Shown here: positions 1 to 7,995 of the stretch, one piece after another | How the letters are laid out: the number at the start of each line of letters is the position of its first letter | Numbering within the stretch: the first letter of the stretch is position 1 | Notes under the pieces: generated by a model | Told to the model about the DNA's origin: nothing | What the model saw: the letters and a program-made list of their open reading frames with translations, nothing else | Databases searched by the model: none | Made by a program: the position numbers and the translations under genes | From: a virus | Reading direction: 5' to 3' (one strand) | UHGV virus genome: UHGV-1440563 | DNA: 7,995 nucleotides

Positions 1-30
1 AAAATTTGGTTCGCACAATGACGTTATGCT

Positions 31-71
31 AAAAAGGCCGCTGCGGGATTCGATTTTCGCAACGGCCTTTT
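31..71. terminator. Bidirectional intrinsic-terminator-like hairpin: stem 36-45 GGCCGCTGCG pairs with 58-67 CGCAACGGCC (one C.A mismatch), 12-nt loop, flanked by AAAAA (31-35) and TTTT (68-71)
   Basis: Read directly from sequence. On the minus strand it lies about 70 nt downstream of the stop of the 77-aa ORF. Confidence 0.45.
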
Positions 72-101
72 CAACATAACGAGTCGTACATTATGCGCAC
101 C
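69..101 (-). other. dif-like XerC/XerD recombination site. Minus strand reads GGTGCGCATAA (XerC arm, identical to E. coli dif), TGTACGACTCG (11-nt central region), TTATGTTGAAA (XerD-like arm, 9 of 11 match to TTATGTTAAAT)
   Basis: Reverse complement of 69-101 compared with the E. coli dif consensus GGTGCGCATAA-TGTATA-TTATGTTAAAT recalled from memory. The arms match but the spacer is 11 nt instead of 6. Confidence 0.5.
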
Positions 102-139
102 AATGGTAAGGATGGCGGGAACTGGCGTTACCGGTGCCG

Positions 140-490: not shown

Positions 491-799
491 TCATATAAAC
501 CAATAGACCGTCCTTACGCCATTCTGGTTATCAATAACATAGCCGCATTGTTTCCTTAAAAATTCTTCTGCTAAATCAATGGCTTTTACAGAAATCTCAT
601 AAGAAGGAAGTAAAGTGTATCCTTTCCCTTCACTGGCAGCTGCTTTGATCGCATCCAGAGTATTATCAATCAGTAACAGAGCAAGTGATGCTTCATTTAC
701 CTGAGCCGAAGAACTTCTGGCTGCAAGTGTCATTGTTTTTGCTTCTTCCGCTGTAATCGTTCGTTCTGCCAGAGCAGATAAAATCCCATAAGAATCCAT
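491..799 (-). CDS. Hypothetical 102-aa protein, Ala/Leu-rich and predicted helical; function unknown
   Basis: ORF begins 20 nt downstream (minus strand) of the hairpin that follows gIV. Weak SD (TGGGGT). Same strand as the phage genes. No family recognised. Confidence 0.45.
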   Translation of the reverse strand: MDSYGILSALAERTITAEEAKTMTLAARSSSAQVNEASLALLLIDNTLDAIKAAASEGKGYTLLPSYEISVKAIDLAEEFLRKQCGYVIDNQNGVRTVYWFI

Positions 800-2141: not shown

Positions 2142-2516
2142 TTACTCCTGACAGGTAACAGTCTGTAAATAACGGCCTTTTCTAATAACAACACGACAGG
2201 CATCTTTAATATCAACGGAATAACCATCTTTAATCAAATCAAAATACTGATATTTCATGCCTTTTGCATCAACAAACGTAACGGAAACGTCAAAGCCAAG
2301 TTGTGAAAAAGAATTAATAGAAAGTCGGGGTAAGTCACTGGACGAATCAGGCGTTACCGCCCTCGCCTGTTCAGCATAAGCAGATTTAATAGCTGAGATT
2401 TCATCAACATTCTTTCCAGACTGGAGCCAGAAACCAAACGCAAGCCCCAGCGCCAAAAAAGAAAGCATTAATATAAGACGGTTCGATTTGCGAAAATAAA
2501 TTTTAGTGAGGCGCAT
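2142..2516 (-). CDS. XI: pXI, in-frame internal restart product of gene I (C-terminal 124 aa)
   Basis: Internal Met at residue 241 of pI (MRLTKIYFRK) aligns with the M13 pXI start (MKLTKIYLKK). No convincing SD at proper spacing, so called by homology of position only. Confidence 0.5.
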   Translation of the reverse strand: MRLTKIYFRKSNRLILMLSFLALGLAFGFWLQSGKNVDEISAIKSAYAEQARAVTPDSSSDLPRLSINSFSQLGFDVSVTFVDAKGMKYQYFDLIKDGYSVDIKDACRVVIRKGRYLQTVTCQE

Positions 2517-3236
2517 ATAATAACTAAATCCTCTGTGAACAGAAAATTGACCGTGCGTGATAAATGGTGGCAAAAGCGAAAATGCGCCATGAGGATAATT
2601 ATCTGTGAACGCTTGTTTGGTATTGTAAGCAGAATAAAGAGATTTTCCTGTATATATCCATTTATCAACAGTGATTGAATTAACATTATCACCATATTTG
2701 ACAATGCCAAAGTGTACCTTTGGTAAAGAAAATCTCGCCCCTGAAACCAAATTCATAATGGAGCCAACAAAAGGAATGTTTAATTTATCTGAACGGCGAC
2801 AATAAACAACATGCTCAGCAAGCGCCAGACGAGCTTGCTTATCCATTATCGAAATATCCTGAATCAAAAATATAATATCCCAGCCTAATTTTCTGGCATG
2901 TAAAAACCAGTCAATAACAGGTTGTCTGTCTTTATCACCCCATGAGCGGGAATTAAACCAAGTACCACATTCATCAAGTACAAGGAGGCCATTACGGGAT
3001 TCATCGTAAGATGTATTCCCAGTACCAATAGCAAGTAAATCATTTAATGAAGGCTTGTCAGGAATGCGAATAACGCGCGTTTTTTTCGCATAACGCCCAA
3101 CCATAGGCATATTATGCAATTTAAGATCAAGATTAGTGGCAACAGGACAACCCTTAGCAAGTCTTTCCTGTATTCTGGAAACACTAACAAGTGTCTTGCC
3201 TGAGCCTAATTTGCCTGTTACTACATAAACCGCCAT
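2142..3236 (-). CDS. I: pI assembly ATPase (Zot-like, P-loop NTPase)
   Basis: N-terminus MAVYVVTGKLGSGKTLVSV matches M13 pI MAVYFVTGKLGSGKTLVSV (Walker A motif). Collinear similarity continues through LLVLDECGTWFN and HARKLGWDIIFL. The ATG directly abuts the pVI stop. Confidence 0.92.
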   Translation of the reverse strand: MAVYVVTGKLGSGKTLVSVSRIQERLAKGCPVATNLDLKLHNMPMVGRYAKKTRVIRIPDKPSLNDLLAIGTGNTSYDESRNGLLVLDECGTWFNSRSWGDKDRQPVIDWFLHARKLGWDIIFLIQDISIMDKQARLALAEHVVYCRRSDKLNIPFVGSIMNLVSGARFSLPKVHFGIVKYGDNVNSITVDKWIYTGKSLYSAYNTKQAFTDNYPHGAFSLLPPFITHGQFSVHRGFSYYMRLTKIYFRKSNRLILMLSFLALGLAFGFWLQSGKNVDEISAIKSAYAEQARAVTPDSSSDLPRLSINSFSQLGFDVSVTFVDAKGMKYQYFDLIKDGYSVDIKDACRVVIRKGRYLQTVTCQE

Positions 3237-3581
3237 TTAAATCACCCTGTTTGCATAATCAAGAAATTTTTGTTTTAAATCGAAAACAAAAACACTGATA
3301 CGAGTAACCATAATAACGTTAACACACGCCTGAAAATGGTCAGGCAATACAGACGCCATTAAATGGGAGAAATCAGCAGGTAAACCGTTATACATGACCT
3401 CAGCAAGGTACTGCATTAAAAGCGTAACAGTTGTTGTAATTAATGCGACCAATGCAAAGGCGATTAATCCTGTTCTGGTAGCAAGTCGAGCTAAAAAACT
3501 CGCCACATAGCCAATAAACAAAGGAACAAGACCAATAAGAAAACGCAACAATGCAGGAATACCTAATAATAAAGGCATCAC
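3237..3581 (-). CDS. VI: pVI minor coat protein (virion tip, membrane-embedded)
   Basis: [14 protein letters not shown]... aligns with M13 pVI MPVLLGIPLLLRF... and shares the C-terminal block FVFDLKQK vs FIFDVKQK. The ATG overlaps the pIII stop (ATGA); the second Met at 3578 may be the true start. Confidence 0.88.
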
Positions 3582-4855
3582 TCACCCCCTTTGCGAAGCA
3601 ATGAAGTTAAAGAAGTAAAGACATACCAGAACGTAAGGCAATAAAAAACCCATGAAAGAACATCTTTAATAGTCAGTAATTTATCGCAACCAATATCAAT
3701 CTGATAAACCTCTCCGGGAAAAATAATAAAATCAGAGCAGCCGTTACCATTGGGTAAATTAGGCAGCATAGCACCTTTATTTAAAAATGCTTCCCATAAA
3801 GCACCGTGAGAATCCTTTTCAATTCCCAATTCAGAATCAGCCAAAGTAGAAGCGCCATCTAATTCAGAGTCGCCCTTTCCATAACGAGAATCACCACCTG
3901 AAGGGTCAGCAAAACGGCCAGCCCCCCGCGTAAGATTGTTAATGGAATCGTCAAGACGATTTATATTATTCCTGGTTTGTTCATCGGCATTTTTTTTATC
4001 ATCTGATGAAGTGTCTTTCTCCGTTAATTTATCATGAATATCGCTGGCTATTTTGGGTGAAGCACCTTCGATCGCAGACTGAATATCACCTTTAGAAAGA
4101 CTGGAACCACTAGAGCCACCGCCAGAACTACCGCCAGAGCCACCGCCAGAACTACCGCCAGAACTACCGCCAGAGCCACCGCCAGAACTACCGCCAGAAC
4201 TACCGCCGCCAGACTCACCACCACCGGACTCACCACCGCCATTTTGGGGGGTTGAGGGTTTATCAGAGGGGTCAGCTACAGCACCTGTAGGCTTCCATGT
4301 TGCAGCGCAAACAGTACCATCACCCTGACAAACAATGACACCAGTAGCCTCATATTCACAGCCGTTATAGTAGATATAGCGACCACCATCATATGAATCA
4401 ACATTATTAAATACACCTTCTTCTGGCGGCTTCGCTTCACAAATTTCTTCTGGTGTCGGGTCAGTAGGTTTTTCATCAGGAACAGAACGCTGAATATTAC
4501 CAACAATATAAGCCGTTAAAGACCAATATTTATCCTTCTGCCCTGGTGAATCGCTGTAAGTACAATCACCAGTAAAAACAAGACGGAATTCAGAATCAGG
4601 CCAGATACCCTCATAAGTTGGTTTAACCCGAGTAAATACACTCTGAGCACTGGATTTAGCACCCTGACAAGCGGAGGCCTGCATAGCAGCATCAATATAG
4701 TAAACCGTTGTCTTAGAGCCATCCTGATTGGTTATTTGCTTACTTTCAGCGTAGGCAGAACTTTGATAAGTGGATTTAGTAATGCTTTCCCATGACTCAG
4801 CATGTGAAAAAGGAGAAATGAGGACAGCGGAAAGAATTAATATTTTCCTTTTCAT
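3578..4855 (-). CDS. III: pIII adsorption (attachment) protein: signal peptide, divergent N-terminal receptor-binding region, Gly/Ser linker, conserved C-terminal membrane anchor
   Basis: Start set at the internal ATG 4855 ([19 protein letters not shown], compare M13 MKKLLFAIPLVVPFYSHS). Gly/Ser-rich linker. C-terminus NKGAM...NGNG...IGCDKL...FWYVFTS resembles the M13 pIII C-terminal domain. Confidence 0.88.
4100..4240 (-). repeat. Tandem short-period repeats encoding the Gly/Ser-rich pIII interdomain linker (GGGES / GGSS / GGGS units)
   Basis: Reiterated accgccaga(a/g)c units visible on the plus strand; the translation is 47 residues of G, S and E. Confidence 0.85.
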
Positions 4856-4901: not shown

Positions 4902-5144
4902 TCAAACCGCTTTTGAAGAGAATTTTTTGAAAATACGAATGGCAAGCCCAGCGCCAACCACAGCCACAACAACAGGCCATACTTTACCAATGAGATCATT
5001 TGCCTGAGTCAACAAAGCATCCATTGCCTGGCCTGCATAATCAGTACCACCTGTAGCGCCTTCAGCCGCAAAAGAACTTGCAGAAATAAAAAGCGCAGTT
5101 GAAGCCAGAGCAACTTTATATTTAACAGTAGACAGAATTTTCAT
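4902..5144 (-). CDS. VIII: pVIII major coat protein precursor (signal peptide cleaved after SFA; 54-aa mature protein)
   Basis: The ...SFAAEG... cleavage region matches M13, and the basic C-terminus [11 protein letters not shown] matches M13 KLFKKFTSKAS. GGAG SD 9 nt upstream. Confidence 0.92.
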
Positions 5145-5163: not shown

Positions 5164-5259
5164 TTACATTAATCGGTCAGAAAATGATTTAAATGAACCG
5201 ACCGCATAGAAAAGGGCAAAACCAAAGGTATAAGCCCCGAAGAAATAAACGATATACAT
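5164..5259 (-). CDS. IX: pIX minor coat protein (31 aa)
   Basis: Hand translation MYIVYFFGAYTFGFALFYAVGSFKSFSDRLM resembles M13 pIX (MSVLVYSFASFVLGW...FTRLME). Start overlaps the pVII stop (TAATG). It is the C-terminal part of track ORF 5164-5388. Confidence 0.7.
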   Translation of the reverse strand: MYIVYFFGAYTFGFALFYAVGSFKSFSDRLM

Positions 5260-5345
5260 TAACGAAAGACCCCCGCAGTAATCGCGCCGAGGCCAAAAGA
5301 AATAACGATGCCAGACGCTATCAAAATTTGAATAACATCGTCCAT
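5259..5345 (-). CDS. VII: pVII minor coat protein (28 aa)
   Basis: Not in the ORF track; found by reading the minus strand. MDDVIQILIASGIVISFGLGAITAGVFR resembles M13 pVII (...ISVVLCFALGIIAGGQR). The ATG lies 2 nt after the gV stop, in the expected position. Confidence 0.7.
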   Translation of the reverse strand: MDDVIQILIASGIVISFGLGAITAGVFR

Positions 5346-5347
5346 AT

Positions 5348-5665
5348 TTAACCTTTGATCTCTGCGATGCCACCATCGGAAGAAACATTATAAGTTACAC
5401 CTTCCCTACCCTCCATTGACCACGCACGGACATAGACAGGAATTTGAACTAATTTCCCAATGAAAGCATTCGCCTGGTTCATTAGACCTGCGTTAACGAG
5501 AGCCTGAGAAACTCGAATAATAATTTGATCCTGCTTTGTACCACCAAAACCATCAGGTATTTCAAGGCCAATACCAATTTCATTATAATAGCCCTGACCA
5601 TTAACTTTATTACGTTGGCGGGCTCCCAACATTTTACCCTTAACGAAAAGACCATAATTAGACAT
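5348..5665 (-). CDS. V: Putative ssDNA-binding protein in the gene V position; only weak resemblance to Ff pV
   Basis: Called mainly on synteny (between gII and gVII) and a good SD (AAGGAAAG). Local motif GQGYYNEI vs M13 GKPYSLNEQ. At 105 aa it is longer than Ff pV. Confidence 0.55.
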   Translation of the reverse strand: MSNYGLFVKGKMLGARQRNKVNGQGYYNEIGIGLEIPDGFGGTKQDQIIIRVSQALVNAGLMNQANAFIGKLVQIPVYVRAWSMEGREGVTYNVSSDGGIAEIKG

Positions 5666-5676
5666 ATTACTTTCCT

Positions 5677-5991
5677 TTAATGCCAGCTACTGGCGTGCGA
5701 AATACGGTTGTAATCGAAAATAAAACCTTTCTCATAAATCCATAAGGGGATTTCCGCTGGCTTGGCTTCCAGCGTTCTTATTAGCGGAACAACGTTATTA
5801 GAGTCTGGTGAATCACAATAGAAATTAATATCGATACCGAACGAAAGCAATTCTCTTCTATGGCGATAAAAAGTGTTATGAGGTAACATTTCTTTCATGT
5901 TAGCCCCTTGTTTCCAAAGTAAATAAGTTGACTGTATTTTTCTTGGCAGTTTCGTTATTTTTTCATCACTTAAAATAGCATTCTGATTCAT
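5677..5991 (-). CDS. X: pX, in-frame internal restart within gene II (C-terminal 104 aa)
   Basis: Internal ATG at 5991 preceded by GGGAGA SD. MNQNAILSDEK... aligns with the M13 pX start MNIYDDSAVLDA... Confidence 0.6.
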   Translation of the reverse strand: MNQNAILSDEKITKLPRKIQSTYLLWKQGANMKEMLPHNTFYRHRRELLSFGIDINFYCDSPDSNNVVPLIRTLEAKPAEIPLWIYEKGFIFDYNRISHASSWH

Positions 5992-6729
5992 TTCTATTCT
6001 CCCTACATATTCAGAGAATAATTGACGTGGTGTTTTCATATTCCAGTTAGCGCCAAGCGTTAAATTTAAATCAATAAGCTCAGTTGTTCTTAATGTTAAT
6101 TCAATACGTAATTTATCTTTCGTCCAGTCCAGTAACCCGGCTCGTACAAACTCTTCGGCTATCTGGTGCCCTTTTTTACCAGAAACGTGTTCATCATATT
6201 TTGAATAAAATTTCAGACTCCATCGACGGGAGTTTTTACCTAAATAAACTGTACCGCCTTTCCCACATGCGCGACCATGGCGTGTTTTAGCTTTAAATTC
6301 GGCGGCATAAAGCCATGATCTGACATTTTCCAGCGTAGATAATGAATACATGTAATTAATGTCAACACGTGAAATTTTATACTGACCTGCCATAACGGCT
6401 TTATAAGACGCTAAATCATGAGGAATATTCAATAAGGATAAAATCCTGGCATAGACCGTCAACATGAGCCCTTGTATATCATCCGACCCAACAACAGAAT
6501 GCCCCTGCAGAAACTTGGAAGGATTACCATCAATGTACAAATGTGTCGCTTTACCTTCGCCATTAGATCCTATCGATCGTACTTTCATCGTTGCTTCATG
6601 CGAGCCGCGAACAGTCAGTCGCTTAACGGTTTCCCACTCAATTGCACCGTCAGCATCAACGCTGACAACACTCCCCGCCGGAAGCGGTTTGTGTGTGCAA
6701 GGGAAAATCCCGGTAAGCCAATCGATCAC
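5677..6729 (-). CDS. II: pII rolling-circle replication initiator (nickase)
   Basis: Collinear similarity to M13 pII (LQGHSVVGSDD vs LQGHNVFGTTD; NNVVPLIRT vs NNVVPLVRF). Preferred start is GTG at 6729 (V-I-D-W, compare M13 M-I-D-M) with GAGGA SD 7 nt upstream. The track ORF starts at an upstream GTG (6771) that has no SD. Confidence 0.85.
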   Translation of the reverse strand: MIDWLTGIFPCTHKPLPAGSVVSVDADGAIEWETVKRLTVRGSHEATMKVRSIGSNGEGKATHLYIDGNPSKFLQGHSVVGSDDIQGLMLTVYARILSLLNIPHDLASYKAVMAGQYKISRVDINYMYSLSTLENVRSWLYAAEFKAKTRHGRACGKGGTVYLGKNSRRWSLKFYSKYDEHVSGKKGHQIAEEFVRAGLLDWTKDKLRIELTLRTTELIDLNLTLGANWNMKTPRQLFSEYVGRIEMNQNAILSDEKITKLPRKIQSTYLLWKQGANMKEMLPHNTFYRHRRELLSFGIDINFYCDSPDSNNVVPLIRTLEAKPAEIPLWIYEKGFIFDYNRISHASSWH

Positions 6730-6898: not shown

Positions 6899-7081
6899 AT
6901 GGCAAAGCGCACGACTTATAACGTGACGGAAGAAAGAAAAATGAAACTAGAACGACTGGCTATAAATGCCAGTGTAAAACTAGGAAAAACAATTACATGG
7001 ACAGAGATTTTAGGTTATCTGATTGATAACTACTCTAAAGATGCAGCAGAAGATCTCATGTCTGCCAAACAAAAGGATTAA
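6899..7081 (+). CDS. Small (60 aa) putative ribbon-helix-helix (CopG/Arc-like) DNA-binding protein
   Basis: Pattern of short polar/hydrophobic strand (TTYNVT), helix (EERKMKLERLAINA), Gly-containing turn and second helix (ITWTEILGYLIDNY) resembles CopG-type RHH repressors. Only a weak SD. Divergent from gII, with the repeat array between them. Confidence 0.5.
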   Translation: MAKRTTYNVTEERKMKLERLAINASVKLGKTITWTEILGYLIDNYSKDAAEDLMSAKQKD

Positions 7082-7135
7082 GTACCACGAATGGTACAAA
7101 CGTGCAGTATTACCTACACTGCACGTTCTTTTTTG
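7082..7135 (+). terminator. Tandem hairpins after the 60-aa ORF: GTACCA-cgaa-TGGTAC (7082-7097), then a perfect 9-bp stem ACGTGCAGT / ACTGCACGT (7100-7108 and 7118-7126) followed by TCTTTTTT (intrinsic terminator)
   Basis: Read directly. GC-containing perfect stem plus T-run immediately 3' of the stop codon at 7079-7081. Confidence 0.65.
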
Positions 7136-7180
7136 TGCAAATTATAAGCAGCAAGGACGTTAACGAAAAGAAAACTAGTA

Positions 7181-7209
7181 TCGACATTCGAAATGTTAAC
7201 TATTATTAA
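7181..7209 (+). promoter_or_regulatory. Possible sigma70-type promoter for the Doc-like gene (-35 TCGACA 7181-7186, 17-nt spacer, -10 TATTAA 7204-7209); GTTAAC palindromes at 7160-7165 and 7195-7200
   Basis: Hexamer inspection only; both hexamers are imperfect. Confidence 0.25.
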
Positions 7210-7233
7210 CAAATAGAGTAATGGAAGAATATA

Positions 7234-7968
7234 ATGATCACTATAGAAGAAGCAACATCGGTCCATGAATATTTAACAAATTACTATCAAAACTCTGATG
7301 ATCCTATCTCTCCTCCGGGAATAAAAAACATAGAGCTTTTAGAGTCTGCCATAGCAAGACCTTTTATGACCATGAACAGAAAGGATGTCTATCCAGATGA
7401 TTTAGATAAAGCCGCAGCTCTATTTCATGGTGTCATATCCAACCACTGTTTCCATAATGGTAATAAAAGAACAGCACTTCTACTAACCATGTGCTTTTTA
7501 GACCGAGCTGGATATTGGCTGGATAAGTGTGATGACCTGCAACTCTTTGAATTTACAAGAAGTGTTGCGGCACATGAGATATGTAAAAATAGAATTGATG
7601 AAATAAAAACAATCAAGGCATTTTTCCGAAGTAATTCACGGAAGAAAAAAATCACAGATGAACAATTGAGTTTTATTGCATTAAGCAGGCATCTAACCAA
7701 CGCAGGTTTCAATATAGAAGACGATGGTGACTATTACTCTATCTTTAAAAATAATAAAAGATATACAAAAATAATAAAAAAAGGCGCATCAGGACATGAA
7801 AAATACGATCCACAATACATAAAATCCCTTAGAAAAAGATTGCTTCTTACCCCGAAGTATGGATGGGATAGCATAAGGTTTTATCAATTATATTCATCAT
7901 TGACGGAAAACATTGGTGAATTATTACGTTTACGTGGAGAGGTAATGGACTGGCTTGCAAAAATATAA
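7234..7968 (+). CDS. Doc/Fic-family protein (death-on-curing-like toxin domain, residues about 1-125) fused to an unassigned Lys-rich C-terminal region of about 120 aa
   Basis: Motif HCFHNGNKR (residues 71-79, nt 7444-7470) fits the Doc signature HxFx(D/N)(A/G)NKR. The surrounding region aligns with P1 Doc as I recall it (...PGI.N.ELLESAIARP..., NKRTALL..., ...AAHEI). GGAAG SD 6 nt upstream. Confidence 0.8.
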   Translation: MITIEEATSVHEYLTNYYQNSDDPISPPGIKNIELLESAIARPFMTMNRKDVYPDDLDKAAALFHGVISNHCFHNGNKRTALLLTMCFLDRAGYWLDKCDDLQLFEFTRSVAAHEICKNRIDEIKTIKAFFRSNSRKKKITDEQLSFIALSRHLTNAGFNIEDDGDYYSIFKNNKRYTKIIKKGASGHEKYDPQYIKSLRKRLLLTPKYGWDSIRFYQLYSSLTENIGELLRLRGEVMDWLAKI

Positions 7969-7995
7969 TTAAAAAATTTGTTTGGTAGCTGGATA

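Follow-up and report, generated by a model that had tools for sequence, protein, structure and literature searches.

Genetic Organization of the Locus

The stretch of DNA analysed here (hereafter the window) is the whole of a 7,995-bp metagenome contig, ERZ1741957 NODE_1047, which was assembled at 2.7x coverage, corresponds to about one genome unit of a filamentous phage and contains no host flank. It carries phage genes on the minus strand, an accessory block in the opposite orientation that lies beside the hairpin in the circular map and, close to the first letter, a pair of sequences that resemble the chromosomal dif site:

6-103, minus (phage-sense) strand, putative complete folded attP(+) hairpin (predicted fold: XerC-arm stem, bulged centre, XerD-arm stem, and tip)
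8-34, plus strand, attP2-like inverted partner, found by the site scan and conserved together with 69-101 in all relatives
8-18, plus strand, XerC-arm-like GGTTCGCACAA
19-23, plus strand, 5-nt central region TGACG
24-34, plus strand, XerD-arm-like TTATGCTAAAA
35-68, hairpin tip, a G+C-rich 10-bp stem (36-45/58-67) with one G-T pair and a 12-nt loop (46-57)
69-101, minus strand, attP1-like site, found by the arm/spacer scan and present at every host-proximal and tandem junction in lysogens
69-79, minus strand, XerD arm TTATGTTGAAA
80-90, minus strand, 11-nt central region TGTACGACTCG
91-101, minus strand, XerC arm GGTGCGCATAA
102-127, minus strand, phage sequence beside the XerC arm, which adjoins the regenerated dif in lysogens and is conserved with YpfΦ
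140-373 and 491-799, minus strand, two small phage ORFs of 77 and 102 aa
869-2134, minus strand, gIV secretin
2142-3236, minus strand, gI (Zot family)
3237-3581, minus strand, gVI
3578-4855, minus strand, gIII
4902-5144, minus strand, gVIII
5259-5345, minus strand, gVII
5348-5665, minus strand, gV
5677-6729, minus strand, gII
6899-7968, plus strand, accessory block
6899-7081, plus strand, 60-aa ORF
7234-7968, plus strand, Fic/Doc-family cargo gene

The phage is a composite of IKe-like morphogenesis genes, YpfΦ/CUS-1-like replication genes and a YpfΦ/CUS-1 attachment module. Its assembly genes share 51-69% amino acid identity with those of IKe, gIV being 69% identical to the IKe secretin, and gI declines in similarity from IKe (66%) through I2-2 (63%) and If1 (55%) to Ff (fd, M13, f1; 53%); against the Yersinia pestis YpfΦ locus, gII and gV are 86% and 94% identical at the amino acid level. 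Identity with CUS-1/YpfΦ itself was considered and rejected, as the hairpin module and gII-gV alone align to the Y. pestis locus; membership of YpfΦ/CUS-1 entails ~99% nucleotide identity over a 7.1-kb core, a level that this phage does not reach. A distinct set of 119 complete E. coli genomes contains the YpfΦ-type core (99.7% identical).

The description of the UPφ viruses (UPφ901; Shapiro & Putonti 2020) includes ~66-70% amino acid identity to IKe and I2-2, identity to YpfΦ above 85% in gII and gV only, a g3p with GGGES repeats, two novel ORFs after gIV, reverse-oriented accessory ORFs beside dif and tandem copies at dif in E. coli, Salmonella, Klebsiella, Citrobacter, and Y. enterocolitica (PMC7307601). 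Judged against this published description, the present phage appears to be of the UPφ type: it shares the IKe/I2-2-like core, the YpfΦ-like gII and gV, the GGGES g3p and the tandem copies integrated at dif, and its ORFs at 140-799 match the two novel UPφ genes, which lie in a region that is intergenic in IKe (PMC7307601). It differs from that description in carrying a Fic/Doc cargo gene. A Pfam scan of the ten largest ORFs, with the 60-aa ORF and gVII covered through PHROGs or their translations, found no integrase.

The Gly/Ser-rich GGGES/GGS repeat tract of gIII (3578-4855, minus strand) changes in length among copies that are otherwise 99% identical, with products of 415-434 aa (the ORF in the window spans 473 aa, or 425 aa from the signal-peptide start). 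The slot between the conserved 60-aa ORF and the hairpin holds variable cargo, which here is a 244-aa Fic/Doc-family protein with no obvious antitoxin and with weak PADLOC matches to the candidate defence families PDC-S23 and PDC-M59B, and which in other E. coli copies is STM4504/CBY_0614, a PD-(D/E)XK nuclease or hypothetical genes. The public collection contains the identical Fic/Doc protein in 480 blocks.

The minus strand is rich in T (33.7%), as are the viral strands of Ff phages, a composition consistent with the coding-sense minus strand being the one that is packaged. Positions 1-68, which a preliminary description of this DNA had taken as possible host sequence, belong to the phage hairpin module and lie 3' of the cargo gene in every relative; they can be assigned to the phage because a circular 7,938-bp Salmonella enterica record is 99-100% identical to the window with an identical module and because the contig is of unit length without host flank. 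The opposite end of the window is less regular: its last 12-16 nt (7980-7995, …TTTGTTTGGTAGCTGGATA) are unlike all relatives, in which the sequence runs on into the hairpin module (TTTGGTTCGCACAATGACG…), and they found no match among complete E. coli genomes, viral contigs or loci with the identical Fic protein. Since the window is an entire metagenome contig of 2.7x coverage, these nucleotides are probably a ragged assembly end.

An Inverted Pair of dif-like Sites

A scan of both strands for XerC/XerD sites (at most two mismatches per arm and a spacer of 4-13 nt) returned two sites in the whole window, 8-34 on the plus strand and 69-101 on the minus strand, which are inverted with respect to one another and 34 nt apart. 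The resemblance of 69-101 to dif had been pointed out in the preliminary description, and each of its particulars is confirmed: the XerC arm GGTGCGCATAA is identical to that of E. coli dif, the XerD arm TTATGTTGAAA agrees with it in 9 of 11 nucleotides and 11 nt separate the two arms. The same XerC arm is found in the dif of both E. coli K-12 and Y. pestis (GGTGCGCATAATGTATATTATGTTAAAT, PMC2731167), and the central region has TGTA in common with TGTATA of dif at its XerC side, the remainder being unrelated. That description overlooked the partner at 8-34 and with it the folded single-strand architecture, as well as the earlier published accounts of such sites and of the UPφ group.

Windows simulated under a first-order Markov model contained a mean of 0.0115 such sites, with any site at all in 23 of 2,000, which places the arm similarity well above chance. 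That the resemblance is a fortuitous feature of a transcription terminator might be argued from the hairpin tip, where a G+C-rich stem is followed by T-runs, on both strands, between convergent genes; yet two sites are present where 0.0115 are expected, they are conserved across genera and they fall exactly at prophage junctions, so that a chance origin is barely credible and is refuted by the junction analysis below. Short repeats around the site carry no comparable signal. An 8-bp inverted repeat that had been reported at 99-106/140-147 proves to be 7 bp long (99-105/141-147), position 140 being T rather than C, and is one among several short repeats at chance level; an 8-nt inverted match between 16-23 and 138-145 is likewise at about chance level.

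Predicted Folding of the Phage-Sense Strand

When the minus strand of positions 1-110 is folded as single-stranded DNA, it is predicted to form a single long hairpin (6-103; -31.1 kcal/mol, z = -7.1), in which each arm of 69-101 pairs with its counterpart in 8-34, XerC with XerC-like and XerD with XerD-like, and 8-34 supplies the lower strand of the stem. The plus strand of the same region folds at -26.0 kcal/mol. The phage-sense strand is the more stable because its arm mismatches are G-T wobbles, which become A-C mismatches on the plus strand, and it folds more stably than its complement in 12 of the 13 module variants described below; in the remaining variant, L005, the folding energy has no strand asymmetry, which counts against a folded substrate.

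In this predicted fold, the two central regions face one another with 11 nt on the top strand and 5 nt on the bottom strand. Pairing of the lower region, CGTCA, with the two ends of the upper region (TG...CG) is possible and would leave ~5-7 upper-strand nucleotides bulged out. Because the stem pairs and the surplus upper-strand nucleotides are bulged, a near-canonical spacing of the arms would arise in the folded form alone, and the 11-nt spacer is thereby explained by the folded single-strand architecture with the partner at 8-34.

The tip of this hairpin (35-68), which has T-runs on both strands, corresponds to the terminator hairpin that the preliminary description had placed at 36-67. The hairpin itself stands, as the tip of the 6-103 fold; its reading as a terminator found no echo in a terminator and promoter scan of positions 1-500, which called nothing, and we infer at most that the tip may double as a bidirectional terminator. 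An Rfam search gave no match to any family.

Conservation and Covariation of the Hairpin Module

When one genome per species was scanned for the exact pattern, the site with its 11-nt spacer turned up in five records, namely Y. pestis, Phytobacter, Erwinia tracheiphila, Enterobacter adelaidei and a contaminated metagenome-assembled genome (MAG). The last is a contig binned as Candidatus Nanosynbacter that carries this enterobacterial phage (98% identical over 4.5 kb) with an E. coli-like hipA-side flank; its presence in that bin is almost certainly contamination. Adding relatives from viral contigs and plasmids brought the number of distinct modules to 13, and a covariance model added further ones, including a diverged module in a metagenomic inovirus (L039, 32-125 and 8519-8612) whose gI is 67% identical, whose genome is apparently circular by terminal repeat and whose central region reads TGTGCCACACG. 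Because this inovirus also carries it, the module is common to at least four backbone lineages. The same model found the module absent from IKe, I2-2, If1, Ff, and more distant relatives, and for the four named phages this absence fits their non-integrating lifestyle. In E. coli, 236 of 5,426 complete genomes (~4%) contain the module.

YpfΦ/CUS-1-type phages with the same hairpin module were also seen outside the chromosome, tandemly integrated in a Klebsiella pneumoniae IncFIB/HI1B plasmid and as a 9,565-bp free circle in E. coli, the latter with a central region that differs by one base (TGTGCGACTCG) and a different loop.

The distribution of variation within the module follows the predicted structure. 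The upper arms are invariant across modules except for one XerD-arm base each in L005 and L039, the lower arms have a few variable positions, the upper central region keeps TGT next to the XerC arm and CG next to the XerD arm in every module and the lower central region is CGTCA throughout, with CGTTA in L039 only. Most of the variation lies in the predicted bulge (ACGACT, CAACG, CCACGT, GCGACT, AGCACG, GCCACA, and CATACG) and in the terminal loop, whose sequence differs among relatives. L039 has four compensatory pair changes, one of them within the XerD-arm stem (T-A to A-T); compensatory changes are seen in its tip stem. In the tested structure 99.3% of cells were paired, compared with 28-51% when the partner was slid, and none of 500 shuffles reached the observed values, figures that are to be read with all compensatory changes coming from the single lineage L039 and with a structure derived from the same sequences.

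Prophage Topology and the Point of Crossover

The position of the site in integrated copies of the phage was read from lysogens. In E. coli KFu015, a canonical dif adjoins the prophage, and the layout runs from dif through three tandem copies (period 7,974 bp) to hipA; the 33-nt site occurs at both internal junctions and at the hipA junction, and at the far end the phage sequence runs through GGTGCGCATAA-TGTATA-TTATGTTAAAT into host DNA, which is an intact dif. Ten further lysogen loci with the identical Fic protein have the same topology in several host contexts, with the 33-nt site at every junction between copies and at the host junction on the XerC-arm side, which in E. coli is the hipA side. 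Thus, the second dif-like site that might have been expected to mark the other prophage end is in lysogens a regenerated canonical dif, and the proposal in the preliminary description of an attP, or prophage/host junction, of a Xer-exploiting phage gains support from the lysogen junctions and the circular episome.

Its alternative proposal of a dimer-resolution site is not borne out. A cer/psi-like site that keeps the replicative form monomeric would be in keeping with the presence of XerC and XerD arms in a phage that replicates as a small circle; its arms would be expected 6-8 bp apart, as in dif and in the resolution sites (cer/psi) named in that description, rather than 11 nt, the true dif lies at the other prophage end and in more than 10 lysogens the site is where crossover with the chromosomal dif took place. 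We therefore regard a resolution function as very improbable.

Three single lysogens with non-E. coli flanks (L009, L011, and L012) narrow the crossover further. Their host-proximal site starts AGTGCGCATAA, whereas the regenerated dif and the circular form start GGTGCGCATAA, a split that confines the crossover to the stretch from arm position 1 to central position 5, an interval consistent with XerC cleavage at the arm/central boundary. On the simplest reading of this junction asymmetry, the A at arm position 1 would have come from the host dif (the list in PMC2731167 does not include a Salmonella dif sequence). The host-proximal site of L013 likewise starts AGTGCGCATAA. This locus is a heterologous tandem (2802-2894 and 10746-10839) of two related phages that differ in cargo and in central region (TGTACGACTCG and TGTCAACGCG) and that integrated successively at the same dif; in it, the XerC arm from one phage continues into the other phage's central region, TGTCAACGCG, as a second integration into a regenerated dif would produce. 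Among the junctions examined, none joined a host arm to TGACG, the product expected from integration of the plus-strand hairpin.

Whether the window's own copy of the site derives from a free circular genome or from the junction between two copies in a tandem prophage that the assembler collapsed is a question of physical source that leaves function unaffected and is compatible with a folded attP. Collapse is quite possible, though we do not favour it: the unit-length 2.7x metagenome contig without host flank is in keeping with it, arrays are common and their junctions read the same as the circular form; on the other side, a circular episome of the same phage exists.

The comparisons brought other elements to light. 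Directly on the XerD side of dif in KFu015 (L001, 1-3954) are two adjacent site-specific integrase genes and a large hypothetical gene, which suggests another island abutting the terminus site. In a further E. coli locus (L016, 10999-14065), an extra insert separates the prophage from hipA. It codes for a TolA-domain protein, contains a 315-aa ORF and has GGTGCGCATAA-TGTGTTGA-ACATGTTAAAT, with an 8-nt spacer, at its boundary; it has the look of another type of Xer-exploiting element that has stacked at the same dif. A 385-kb record labelled "plasmid unnamed1" (NZ_CP141085.1) contains hipBA, tam, uxaB, and a tandem prophage at dif and appears to be a piece of the chromosome terminus. The E. coli IncF plasmid pMS20659 (L099, 4341-6091) has a truncated hairpin that corresponds to window positions 6-78, cut inside the XerD arm; it adjoins an STM4504-family cargo gene, with no phage genes, and lies ~1.6 kb from a dif-like site, GGTGCACATAA-TCTATC-TTATGTTAAAT. 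This arrangement recurs in ~66 further plasmid records, on many conjugative plasmids of E. coli, Klebsiella, and Enterobacter, and may be a prophage relic or a phage-less mini-element.

A Folded Attachment Site as the Probable Substrate for Integration

The analysis establishes the sequence of the site, the pairing of its two halves, the conservation of the module with some covariation, the topology of the prophages and the interval of crossover. From these we conclude, with a probability of roughly 0.8, that 69-101 forms one half, the attP1-like one, of a folded attP(+) of the CTXφ type in a filamentous phage of the UPφ type. The module of YpfΦ is 96% identical to positions 6-127 of the window, and on this ground the mechanism described for CTXφ and YpfΦ is assigned to the present site, where it probably operates too. 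By analogy with CTXφ, the binding and cleavage by XerC and XerD, the identity of the packaged strand, the single-stranded substrate, catalysis by XerC alone and resolution of the junction by replication would all apply to this phage.

On this analogy, 69-101 in the packaged phage-sense single strand (minus) would pair with the inverted attP2-like sequence at 8-34, producing duplex XerC and XerD arms that are 5 nt apart on the lower strand, with the extra nucleotides of the upper central region bulged. Host XerC and XerD would bind this stem and synapse it with chromosomal dif, and XerC would cut after GGTGCGCATAA and exchange one pair of strands, the minus strand of 69-101 being the one that is cut and exchanged; homology with dif on the XerC side of the central region, TGT(A), may stabilise the exchange, and no second exchange would be expected because the XerD side lacks homology to dif. 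The resulting pseudo-Holliday junction would then give rise to a prophage through replication. The entire hairpin region, by now double-stranded, would come to lie at the XerC-side host junction, where its 11-bp spacer would render it inert, and an intact dif composed of the phage XerC arm, the host central region and the host XerD arm would be regenerated at the other end. Tandem arrays would arise by renewed integration into this dif, and their copy-copy junctions recreate the attP sequence and may thus permit rolling-circle production of new genomes.

The junctions themselves do not discriminate between this folded route and a VGJφ-type attP, in which the 33-bp duplex of the replicative form would recombine with dif and the partner would be incidental (e.g., part of a terminator), because recombination of the duplex at the XerC side would yield exactly the junctions seen. 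Superinfecting YpfΦ, moreover, reportedly inserts between resident copies, at a copy-copy junction described as an "imperfect dif site" (PMC4266046), an event that the CTXφ model does not predict and that counts against a folded attP and in favour of the duplex. We nevertheless consider a duplex attP unlikely. Relative to the spacing in dif (6 bp) or VGJφ (7 bp), its 11-bp spacer would turn the arms out of register by roughly half a turn of the helix; the corresponding CTXφ attP1, with 12 bp, is reported to be unsuitable for Xer recombination as duplex (PMC4246890), and the partner is conserved as well as the site itself and covaries with it in L039. A related possibility is that, once integrated, the duplex 33-bp junction with its 11-bp spacer is still a usable XerCD target, perhaps with a host or phage co-factor, which would explain the superinfection by YpfΦ between resident copies and, if true, would extend the known spacing tolerance of Xer recombination; we think this quite unlikely. 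A milder proposal is that the ~120-nt hairpin module may be an exchangeable cassette that has moved between unrelated inovirus backbones and that may survive with cargo genes as a phage-less mini-element on IncF plasmids.

Relation to Known Xer-Exploiting Elements

A site of this kind, with essentially the same sequence, has already been described for YpfΦ/CUS-1 (PMC3089051, PMC4266046, PMC4246890), and the phage group has already been described as UPφ (PMC7307601); our modest addition is that UPφ carries a YpfΦ-type folded attP within a shared block of attP, cargo, regulator, gII, and gV. The current understanding of Xer-exploiting elements is unchanged. The site does offer an explanation of how an otherwise IKe/Ff-like phage can persist stably as a prophage, and be inherited vertically, at the terminus of replication in E. 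coli, Salmonella, Klebsiella-group, and Yersinia hosts, and the 33-nt site with its partner provides a marker by which prophages can be delimited, tandem copies counted and the cargo slot found. It also bears on the UPφ description, which calls the element a copy of dif, mentions no attP, hairpin or central region and reports that the tandem repeats match "just the first fifteen bases" of dif (PMC7307601). Those fifteen bases are GGTGCGCATAA followed by TGTA of the 69-101 site, so that the description is corrected to a probable folded CTXφ-type attP, rather than "a copy of dif", with the dif at the prophage end as a recombinant product.

The closest mechanistic counterpart is the cholera-toxin phage of Vibrio cholerae, CTXφ, whose attP1 (AGTGCGTATTA-TGTGGCGCGGCA-TTATGTTGAGG, 12-nt spacer) and attP2 (AATGCGTATTA-TACGCCA-TTATGTTACGG, with a spacer given as 5-7 nt) are inverted and fold in the (+) single strand into the true substrate (Val et al. 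2005, reviewed in PMC3089051, PMC4246890). [quoted passage not shown] The present module has the sequence features of a CTXφ-type attP(+), comprising inverted sites, their spacers, a predicted fold, XerC-side homology, the topology at dif and the lack of a recombinase. In both systems, two inverted dif-like sites are present, the XerC arm of attP1 is identical to that of the host dif, the attP1 spacer is over-long (12 nt in CTXφ and 11 nt here) and that of attP2 short (5-7 nt and 5 nt), the XerD arm starts TTATGTTGA, TGT homology with dif is confined to the XerC side, a phage integrase is absent and integration at dif regenerates dif at one end and gives tandem arrays. The two differ in that the arms of this phage are fitted to the dif of Enterobacterales, in the distance between the sites (34 nt here, ~90 bp in CTXφ) and the size of the hairpin (~98 nt here, ~150 nt in CTXφ) and in the IKe/Ff-like backbone with its own secretin.

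The relationship with YpfΦ of Y. pestis and CUS-1 of E. coli O18:K1:H7 is closer in the attachment site and more distant elsewhere. The attP of both has been credited with "features for direct ssDNA integration" (PMC3089051), and YpfΦ has inverted XerC/XerD binding sites, a regenerated dif and tandem arrays of 2-4 copies (PMC4266046). Its hairpin module in the Y. pestis locus (L003) is the one that is 96% identical over window positions 6-127, whereas no relationship exists between the morphogenesis genes at the nucleotide level, the two secretins share 27% identity and the cargo differs. VGJφ, which integrates reversibly through a single duplex site with a 7-bp spacer, and TLCφ, which has a degenerate XerD arm and in which XerD performs the first exchange (PMC4246890), resemble the present phage in relying on XerCD, rather than on an integrase encoded by the phage, to integrate at dif. 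Both lack an inverted partner site; the present site, with its 11-nt spacer and inverted partner, departs from the single duplex site of the VGJφ type and most closely resembles the folded attP(+) of CTXφ and YpfΦ.
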